Part shown: positions 32,336-45,686 of the stretch, piece after piece
Numbering within the stretch: the stretch's first letter is position 1
How the letters are laid out: every line of letters starts with the position of its first letter
Source: Clostridia bacterium
GTDB taxonomy: Bacteria > Bacillota > Clostridia > Oscillospirales > CAG-382
Direction: 5' to 3'
DNA: 46,916 nucleotides
Assembly: GCA_900757905.1 (NCBI GenBank)
Contig: CAAEPN010000130.1
Location: 1-46,916 of the forward strand
Notes under the pieces: generated by a model
Told to the model about the DNA's origin: nothing
Databases searched by the model: none
Seen by the model: only the letters and a program-made list of their open reading frames with translations
Made by a program: the position numbers and the translations under genes

Positions 32336-32366
32336 AAGGCAGATACAGAAAATCTGTATCTGCCTT
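32336..32366. terminator. left bracket hairpin of repeat copy 1
   Basis: aaggcagatacag-aaaat-ctgtatctgcctt (13-bp stem) preceded by aaaaa. It is the reverse complement of the hairpin at 32560-32590. Confidence 0.7.
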
Positions 32367-32560
32367 CAGACTGTTGCAAAAGTCTATAAGGTTTTTCGGG
32401 CGAAACCCGATTTCAATTAAAATCTGAAAAATCCGGGGACATGCGCCACGGATTTTTCACCGATAGATTCGCGAGTGTCAAAAAGCGAAGTTTTTTGGCA
32501 TGAGGCGCGAGCACACGAATCTGTTTCCGTGTCGTAAAACAAAGTTTTGCAACACGCTCA
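32367..32560 (-). repeat. structured ~193-nt intergenic repeat, copy 1 (inverted relative to copies 2 and 3)
   Basis: The reverse complement aligns end to end with 43282-43474 and 45479-45670. It contains the same internal hairpins: a 13-bp cgtgt(c/t)gcaaaac stem and a 10-bp gaaaaatccg/cggatttttc stem. Confidence 0.9.
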
Positions 32561-32594
32561 AGGCAGATACAGATTTTCTGTATCTGCTTTTTTT
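32560..32594. terminator. right bracket hairpin of repeat copy 1 (terminator for asnA-direction transcripts)
   Basis: aaggcagatacag-atttt-ctgtatctgcttt followed by tttt. Confidence 0.7.
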
Positions 32595-32597
32595 GCG

Positions 32598-32636
32598 CAA
32601 AAATGACCGGCCCTCCGCAAAGCGGAAAGCCGGCCG
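32598..32636 (-). terminator. probable terminator of the 971-aa gene/micro-ORF operon
   Basis: On the minus strand, ccggc...gccgg encloses an inner tccgc/gcgga hairpin, followed by tcattttt. Homologous to the terminator at 35986-36026. Confidence 0.5.
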
Positions 32637-32659: not shown

Positions 32660-32785
32660 TTATTCAACAGGATCTTCTTCTGCTTCATCATCTGCATATT
32701 GATCGATCATGTTCACATTCATGCTGTTCATGAGAATATCCTCAATGACTTCAAGCGCAAGCTTTGGTGACATATACTTTTTCAT
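32660..32785 (-). CDS. unannotated 41-aa acidic peptide MKKYMSPKLALEVIEDILMNSMNVNMIDQYADDEAEEDPVE
   Basis: Hand translation of the minus strand. AAGAGGTG RBS. The ATG lies 15 nt after the stop of the 971-aa gene. The N-terminus is paralogous to the 6503-6610 peptide. Below the ORF-track cutoff. Confidence 0.6.
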   Translation of the reverse strand: MKKYMSPKLALEVIEDILMNSMNVNMIDQYADDEAEEDPVE

Positions 32786-43252: not shown

Positions 43253-43281
43253 AAGGGCAACCAACTTAAATTGGTTGCCTT
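43253..43281. terminator. left bracket hairpin of repeat copy 2
   Basis: ggcaaccaa-cttaaa-ttggttgcc preceded by aaaagaaa. This acts as a terminator for minus-strand transcripts. Confidence 0.65.
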
Positions 43282-43474
43282 AAGCGTGTCGCAAAACTTC
43301 GTTTTGCGACACGAAAACAGATTCGTGCGCTCGCGCCTCATGCCAAAAAGCTCCGCTTTTCGATACTCGCGAATCTATCGGAGAAAAATCCGTGGCGCAT
43401 GTCCCCGGATTTTTCAGATTTTTTATTGATATCGGGCTTCGCACGAAAAGCTTTATGGACTTTTACAACAGTCT
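43282..43474 (+). repeat. structured ~193-nt intergenic repeat, copy 2
   Basis: Aligns over its full length with copies 1 (reverse complement) and 3. Internal hairpins at 43285-43313 (13-bp stem) and 43383-43415 (10-bp stem, followed by agatttttt). Confidence 0.9.
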
Positions 43475-43506
43475 AAGGGCAGCCAATTTGAATTGGCTGC
43501 CCTTTT
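43475..43506. terminator. right bracket hairpin of repeat copy 2
   Basis: gggcagccaa-tttgaa-ttggctgccc followed by tttt. Near-inverted copy of the left bracket, with 4 substitutions. Confidence 0.65.
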
Positions 43507-45437: not shown

Positions 45438-45476
45438 ACCGTATCTTCCTACGGCAAAAACCATAGAAGATACGGT
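45438..45476 (-). terminator. terminator hairpin adjoining repeat copy 3
   Basis: 11-bp stem accgtatcttc/gaagatacggt with a 17-nt loop, followed on the minus strand by ttttctttt. Terminates the isomerase transcript after it has crossed the repeat. Confidence 0.6.
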
Positions 45477-45478
45477 CT

Positions 45479-45670
45479 GAGCGTGTCGCAAAACTACGTT
45501 TTACGACACGGAAACAGATTCGTGCGCTCGCGCCTCATGCCAAAAAGCTTCGCTTTTCGACACTCGCGAATCTATCGGTGAAAAATCCGTGGCACATGTC
45601 CCCGGATTTTTCAGATTTTTATTGGAATCGGGCTTTGCCCAAAAAGTCTATAAGACTTTCGCAACGGTCT
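45479..45670 (+). repeat. structured ~193-nt intergenic repeat, copy 3
   Basis: Full-length alignment with copies 1 and 2. It lies between the isomerase stop (45687) and its terminator. ACGGTCT occurs both just left of the element and at its right end. Confidence 0.9.
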
Positions 45671-45686
45671 ATTTACTTTTTAAGCA

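Follow-up and report, generated by a model that had tools for sequence, protein, structure and literature searches.

A gene-less repeat element of gut Clostridia flanked by paired copies of local terminator hairpins

The window analysed here, the whole stretch of 46,916 nucleotides, is contig C130 of a 2.36-Mb draft MAG (G000; 258 contigs) of a clostridial bacterium. It carries a multi-copy element of about 193 bp that encodes no protein, and two of its copies stand between paired hairpins whose sequence is private to each locus. How did one repeat come to be bracketed, at each site, by two copies of a different local hairpin? A first-pass annotation, made from the letters alone, described the pairs at copies 1 and 2 with sequences and coordinates that match ours; a third copy, which that annotation does not discuss, has a hairpin on one side only. 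The features are as follows.

32336-32366, left hairpin of copy 1: aaggcagatacag-aaaat-ctgtatctgcctt, 13-bp arms, preceded by an A-run
32367-32559, plus strand, element copy 1: 193 bp, non-coding, with ends 5'-CAGACTGTTGCAAAAGTC...GTTTTGCAACACGCTC-3'
32560-32590, right hairpin of copy 1: aaggcagatacag-atttt-ctgtatctgcttt, followed by a T-run
32605-32635, minus strand, separate intrinsic terminator of the minus-strand operon (micro-ORF and 971-aa gene), outside the duplication
43254-43281, hairpin on the element's 3' side at copy 2: agggcaaccaa-cttaaa-ttggttgcctt, directly after the stop of a histidine-kinase gene
43282-43475, minus strand, element copy 2: 194 bp
43476-43503, hairpin on the element's 5' side at copy 2: agggcagccaa-tttgaa-ttggctgccct, followed by T's
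45438-45476, single hairpin beside copy 3: arms of 11 bp around a loop of 17 nt, with no duplicate
45479-45671, minus strand, element copy 3

At copy 1 the two hairpins are both copies of the duplicated asnA terminator hairpin, and the right one is the exact reverse complement of the left bar one C-to-T change. A simple terminator scan missed the right hairpin, having counted part of the T-run as stem. The hairpins of copy 2 are told apart by a single compensated change in the stem, from an A/T to a G/C pair, and by one unpaired change, and the element was found there in 10/10 conspecific contigs examined. Copy 3 lies at the 5' base of its long-loop hairpin, and 7 bp, AGACCGT, are common to the 5' end of the element and the hairpin base.

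The flanks of all assembled copies show that the pairs in the window are no coincidence. A blastn search of the genome with copy 1 gave 113 hits. Of these, 34 span the full length, 64 are truncated at a contig end and 15 are partial and internal; we estimate about 75 copies. With 64 contig ends lying inside it, the element is a main cause of assembly breaks in this MAG. Thirty full-length copies had enough flank to be compared, and 22 of them carry the same locus-specific palindrome at both ends (local alignment score of at least 30). These palindromes adjoin the element at 0-3 nt. The duplicated stretch measures 19-37 bp (median 29), always forms a hairpin, differs in sequence from locus to locus and ends exactly at the element borders in 20 of the 22 pairs. 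Random genome positions with the same spacing reached this score in 5 of 4000 trials, and flanks taken from different copies matched in 0 of 870 pairings. Matching contig ends by hairpin identity added 17 pairs, so that 39 of 66 left ends have a partner.

The sites share a genomic setting rather than a sequence. At each of the 27 loci that could be evaluated, a long ORF ends no more than 150 nt away, which places the site at a gene 3' end. Convergent ORFs enclose 18 of these loci, and there an A-run mostly precedes the left hairpin and a T-run follows the right. The insertion targets are intrinsic terminators, often bidirectional, much as the first-pass annotation had supposed. Across copies, the hairpin flanks have no common motif beyond A/T at the hairpin base. 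The two cut points lie symmetrically on either side of the dyad axis and are usually separated from the G+C-rich stem by 2-3 A·T pairs.

What did these sites look like before the element arrived? The flanks of 20 paired loci were joined into models of the empty site and searched in seven genomes of the same genus. An uninterrupted match across the junction was found at seven loci (C58, C34, C118:23376, C5:27363, C119, C13 and C20). At the first six, G010, G012 or G001 has a single hairpin and no element; at C20, the empty site in G001 showed no clear hairpin. One hairpin follows asnA in each of G012, G010 and G001, which, with the copy-1 locus included, makes seven loci with single-hairpin empty sites in sister species. 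The same picture is seen among conspecific strains. Ten metagenome contigs of this species from the human gut were retrieved by exact match to the AsnA protein, and eight of them hold the element at the copy-1 site; the other two (L061 and L068) fall short by exactly 224 bp (193 + 31) and keep one hairpin.

Because the empty sites carry one hairpin, the second must have been produced together with the insertion, as had been proposed from the window alone. On this comparison of sequences, the flanking hairpins are a target-site duplication whose size is that of the structure. The alleles with and without the element show an insertion that leaves one complete palindrome on each side, in direct orientation, with a length set by the hairpin and not by a fixed stagger.

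Both copies of the hairpin have since been kept as hairpins. Between copies, 25 of 534 stem positions and 17 of 105 loop positions differ. Across the 22 pairs, six compensated double substitutions were observed against 0.33 expected if stem substitutions were placed at random, and none of 20,000 simulations reached six. Single stem changes turned a Watson-Crick pair into a wobble eight times and into a mismatch five times. The paired changes that had caught attention at copy 2 are thus real and non-random, and they indicate that each copy is maintained as a folded structure. This upkeep could reflect selection on the hairpins as terminators, or else correction templated inside the palindrome.

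We propose, with good though not complete confidence, that the element is a non-autonomous, MITE-like piece of mobile DNA that targets terminator hairpins, duplicates the whole palindrome and is moved by a transposase acting in trans. In this model, a transposase supplied in trans would cut both strands, at the hairpin's two bases, with a two-fold symmetric transpososome attacking both. Extrusion of the palindrome as a cruciform, or its folding in single-stranded DNA, would bring the two cut points together; since they would be neighbours in space in a cruciform whatever the length of the arms, a footprint of variable size would be explained. The element ends would then be joined at the cuts, and gap repair would copy the palindrome to both sides. 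After insertion, the hairpin copies would be kept by terminator selection or templated correction; the short loop of one copy could flip through template switching, making the copies perfectly complementary; and recombination between the long direct repeats, or with other copies of the element, could lead to precise loss of the element or to exchange of its flanks.

The enzyme was sought by several routes. The IS6-type transposase domain (PF13610) was absent from four carrier genomes, the rve domain of IS30 and IS3 transposases (PF00665) from G000, G001 and G020, the DUF772 and DDE_Tnp_1 domains of IS1182/IS5 and IS4/IS5 transposases (PF05598 and PF01609) and the ISL3 domain (PF01610) from G000 and G001, and the IS256 domain (PF00872) from G000. 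Candidates met on the way were set aside: the one PF00665 match in G012 belongs to an IS3-type orfA/orfB element that lacks the ends of our element, and an IS256-type fragment on contig C69 of G001 has unrelated ends. Scans with terminal 18-20-mers returned 20 loci in genome contigs, 50 in metagenome contigs and one in viral contigs, all of them short copies, truncated copies or chance matches. The search of G000, G001, G012, G020 and these three public contig collections turned up no autonomous element that shares the ends of ours. The absence of a transposase is weak evidence, since MAGs often lose insertion sequences and plasmids. Since these searches found no cognate transposase, the DDE enzyme and the cruciform target are putative.

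A genome of the same genus without the element, G005 (L159-L169), holds at least five copies of an insertion sequence with DUF772 and DDE_Tnp_1 domains in a 538-aa open frame. Its ends are unrelated to those of our element, and it was rejected as the cognate.

The make-up of the element itself is uncommon. Its ends form what are at best imperfect terminal inverted repeats (CAGACTGTTGCAAAAGT against GAGCGTGTCGCAAAACT, about 11 of 17 positions), and a family alignment shows an interior (...gaaaaatccggggacatgcgccacggatttttc.ccgatagattcgcgag...ggcatgaggcgcgagcgcacgaatctg...) whose conservation across genera exceeds that of the 5' terminus. The core gaaaaatccggggacatgcgccacggatttttc.ccgatagattcgcgag, for example at 32430-32480 of the window, forms a hairpin with compensatory changes across family members. 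A 3'-terminal hairpin, like the interior better conserved than the termini, covaries as well, appearing as gtgtcg...cgacac, gtgccg...cggcac, gtatcg...cgatac and gcgtcg...cgacgc. A conserved, covarying interior between weak termini is atypical for a plain MITE and would also fit a single-strand, HUH-type mechanism or an RNA function. An Rfam scan of copy 1 at permissive thresholds gave only sub-threshold chance matches, such as plant miRNA precursors, and a known RNA family was rejected as the identity of the element; its core, too, has no match in Rfam.

These features give some weight to single-stranded DNA transposition by an HUH-type enzyme (IS200/IS605-, IS91- or Helitron-like), or another enzyme that reads structure, acting on hairpins on the lagging-strand template, with the duplication left by repair or replication. 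The conserved 3'-terminal hairpin, the covarying internal hairpins, the weak terminal repeats and the fact that the targets are themselves hairpins would all suit such a route, as would the lack of any tested DDE family in G000 or G001. HUH elements, however, are not known to make a target duplication and require a short conserved flanking target motif, whereas here a duplication is present and the flanks share nothing beyond A/T at the hairpin base. We therefore regard this route as unlikely, although it fares best among the alternatives to a trans-acting transposase that duplicates the palindrome. A fuller version of the transposase reading is conceivable, if on balance improbable: the mobiliser could come from a transposase or integrase family with no earlier link to this behaviour, reading the shape of DNA and cutting where a terminator cruciform is extruded, at its junction, or where a hairpin is folded, and the covarying interior could be a functional single-stranded DNA or RNA module and not filler. 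The whole would then be a terminator-specific, safe-haven transposon that restores a terminator to either side of itself, with precise and reversible loss, its flanks evolving by quasi-palindrome correction through loop flips and compensated pairs.

The orientation of the loops bears on a second alternative, in which the insertion itself makes an inverted, fold-back duplication of the hairpin by hairpin-primed synthesis, so that the brackets are reverse complements from the start. The loops are indeed reverse complements at copy 1, at the C87 locus (downstream of a CarD-like gene) and at a third flipped pair, C201/C140. From the inverted loop at copy 1, the first-pass annotation had argued against a simple direct duplication and had raised hairpin-primed duplication as an option. 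Genome-wide, however, the direct alignment is the better one in 18 of 22 pairs, and several pairs (C119, C209, C248 and C6) share a long, asymmetric loop that does not differ between the two hairpin copies. Both of the well-sampled flipped loci also have direct loops in conspecific strains. At copy 1, where strains of the window type have aaaat in the left loop, L066 is a strain with this insertion whose two loops both read atttt, and in L064 the left loop is atttt and the right one, in the same orientation, is tttt, shorter by one base. At C87, L079, L085 and L088 have ggat in both loops, and the left loop is flipped to atcc in seven strains and in G000.

Since the same insertions occur with direct loops in other strains, the inversion arose after insertion. 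The inverted loop at copy 1 is, on the evidence of these alleles, a secondary flip and a polymorphism within the species, and atttt was probably the ancestral orientation, for which the T-rich loops of sister species at this site are weakly suggestive. At C58, the outer arms match the imperfect single hairpin of G012 and the inner arms differ, as inversion at birth would allow; the changed pair at C34, however, consists of one outer and one inner arm. A general rule that inner arms are copied from outer arms, suggested by C58, was rejected on the strength of C34 and of the many identical pairs. Nothing in the data points to hairpin-primed synthesis, and we consider inversion at birth very unlikely.

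The flip leaves the left and right hairpin copies as perfect mutual complements. That the two brackets of copy 1 can pair with each other had been noted before, and in the predicted minimum-free-energy fold of a read-through RNA they do so over about 36 bp, enclosing the element. Quasi-palindrome template switching is an established process, and it is plausible that the flips arise when the hairpin copies pair in single-stranded DNA and the loop mismatch is then corrected from the template.

That two hairpins pre-existed, or came by local tandem duplication, with the element lodged between them by chance or by a preference for spacers, is highly improbable. Two terminators are frequent between convergent genes, and a second, unrelated terminator does stand beside the duplicated one at copy 1 (32605-32635) and is also found at the G012 and G010 empty sites. 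Yet the empty sites refute this, for they show a single hairpin, both in sister species (seven loci) and in conspecific strains (copy 1); moreover, the duplications end at the element borders in nearly all pairs, and mismatched flanks never pair. Weakest of all, to the point of being barely credible, is a Cas1- or casposase-like attack on both palindrome borders: CRISPR spacer acquisition duplicates a repeat of about 30 bp that is often palindromic, which a 19-37-bp palindromic duplication would resemble, but casposon duplications have a fixed length, and Cas1 (PF01867) is absent from five genomes, all carriers (G000, G001, G012, G176 and G177), and present in G005, which is without the element.

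Not every copy follows the rule of paired flanks. Eight of the 30 copies have unrelated flanks, which are usually still hairpins. One and the same hairpin stands to the left of the C83 copy and to the right of the C57 copy. In strain L083 the C87 locus continues, to the right of the element, with a different hairpin and with a HAD-hydrolase gene in place of the usual neighbour, which marks a rearrangement of the genome that broke within the element. As judged from such flanks, exchange between copies explains some, at least, of the unpaired cases.

Loss of the element may also occur. By distance in the short flanks, on which the strain relationships were judged, the copy-1 empty alleles nest among filled strains, and the most divergent strains are filled; the empty L061 and the filled L065 have 11 differences. 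In L061, moreover, the flipped left loop occurs together with the distinctive T of the right copy. The nesting leads us to read these empty alleles as secondary losses, probably through recombination or slippage between the 31-bp repeats; that they are retained ancestral alleles is less probable. Copy 3 is missing from two conspecific contigs (L071 and L078), with the junction inside AGACCGT, and may have been lost at this 7-bp microhomology.

A separate observation concerns possible repeated use of a site. In G001 (locus L047) the element follows the same gene as at C119:1173-1365 of G000, and the duplicated hairpins are wholly different, which suggests from the sequences that the two insertions were independent strikes on orthologous terminators.

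The family was found in 14 of 164 genomes and in 5 of the 15 genera of its taxonomic family, with a patchy distribution even within the genus of G000. Its hairpin-duplicating behaviour extends to at least three genera: a locus of G020 in another genus (L056), after a tRNA gene, has a 25-bp hairpin on both sides, and diverged members in G176 and G177, like both copies in G012, are flanked by duplicated local hairpins. Within G000 the identity between copies has a median of 91% and a maximum of 96.9%, so transposition has not been caught in the act. Judged by this divergence, the copies look like an old burst and the element looks inactive in this lineage now. Internally deleted derivatives occur; the internal partial copies in G000 were considered as ends of a longer element and rejected, being deletion derivatives or truncations.

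Two further observations touch the margins of the family. In G020, two diverged relatives (L057 on C11 and L055 on C9) are flanked by direct repeats of 75-77 nt, a length well beyond that of a hairpin, that are 96-99% identical, and each may be two elements nested or in tandem. A contig binned in a Desulfovibrionaceae MAG (L095, 4571-4765) has an exact 21-nt match to the 5' end of the element, adjoining a stretch of about 125 bp bounded by the inverted motifs CAGGCTGTTCAAAAAGTACC and GGTGCTTTTTCAACAGCCTAT; it may be a distant relative or a mis-binned contig.

Has anything similar been seen before? The closest parallel is IS1630 of Mycoplasma fermentans, a member of the IS30 family, which like our element selects inverted repeats with no fixed sequence as targets and duplicates them. 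Its target duplications are variable, at 19-26 bp (PMC2853133), and in strain M64 it is flanked by repeats of 16, 23, 25 and 26 bp (PMC3317919). Related behaviour is described for ISMhom-1 of M. hominis, whose insertions give rise to site-specific repeats at gene 3' ends and spare the ORFs (PMC7648426). The first-pass annotation had called such a mechanism unusual; it is indeed rare, but IS1630 provides a precedent. The differences are considerable. IS1630 is an autonomous insertion sequence of 1.2-1.4 kb with 27-bp terminal repeats and an rve-domain, IS30-type transposase, of which none was found in the carriers G000, G001 and G020, whereas our element is gene-less and about 193 bp long, makes duplications of up to 37 bp, lives in gut Clostridia and reaches a copy number some 10 times higher.

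The IS1272/TnSha1 elements of staphylococci (IS1182 family) likewise target hairpins without a primary-sequence consensus, and many of their targets are confirmed transcription terminators (PMC4923244, PMC5678879). There the hairpin is partly deleted without any duplication, which has been read as blunt cutting of the stem (PMC4923244), whereas our element keeps and duplicates the whole hairpin; their DUF772/DDE_Tnp_1 type of transposase is among those missing from G000 and G001. A resemblance to IS26 is seen at the termini, where the first 14 bases of the element, CAGACTGTTGCAAA, match the 14-bp terminal repeat GGCACTGTTGCAAA at 11 of 14 positions in the same register. The IS6 family forms cointegrates and makes 8-bp duplications (see PMC8477213), in contrast to the 19-37 bp found here, and its PF13610 domain is missing from the carriers searched. 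We treat the resemblance as a lead only and not as family membership. An isolated IS6-like motif at C148:5456 was rejected, with nothing around it.

Among bacterial MITEs, Correia, RUP, BOX, ERIC and QMITE are, like our element, small, non-coding, multi-copy, intergenic and structured, with truncated or internally deleted derivatives. In these and others, by contrast, target duplications are either short and of fixed length or missing. No element that duplicates terminator hairpins appears in a 2024 review of prokaryotic MITEs (PMC10969869), and full-text literature searches found no such MITE either.

A target duplication whose size is set by structure is rare, with a literature that is essentially one mycoplasma insertion sequence. 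With about 75 insertions to a genome, and carriers from at least three genera among the uncultured Clostridia of the human gut, there are many natural replicates of it here. By settling behind genes and leaving a hairpin on both sides, the element appears to follow a safe-haven strategy. The insertion also splits a bidirectional terminator, with an A-run and a hairpin on one side and a hairpin and a T-run on the other. Each convergent transcript would then meet first a hairpin without most of its U-tract, and beyond the element the full hairpin and T-run. The 3' UTRs of convergent genes would thus probably extend, in opposite directions, through a highly structured insert of 193 nt. Beyond the element itself, the variation within the species (loop flips, compensated stem changes, precise loss, exchange of flanks) provides a natural record of the evolution of short bacterial palindromes.

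Lastly, the neighbourhood of copy 1 is of interest in its own right. The micro-ORF after the 971-aa gene (41-44 aa; window 32660-32785) is a gene call in 10/10 conspecific contigs (L059-L068). In the region that follows copy 1 on the right and takes in the 971-aa gene, groups of strains differ at 250-350 positions per 1500 nt, against fewer than 100 per 3515 nt between strains in the left flank, which marks a surface-protein locus that is strongly allelic. Between 32800 and 38800 the window contains long diverged direct repeats (70-76% identity, families D1-D6), which show the 971-aa gene and the minus-strand genes further right to be paralogues.
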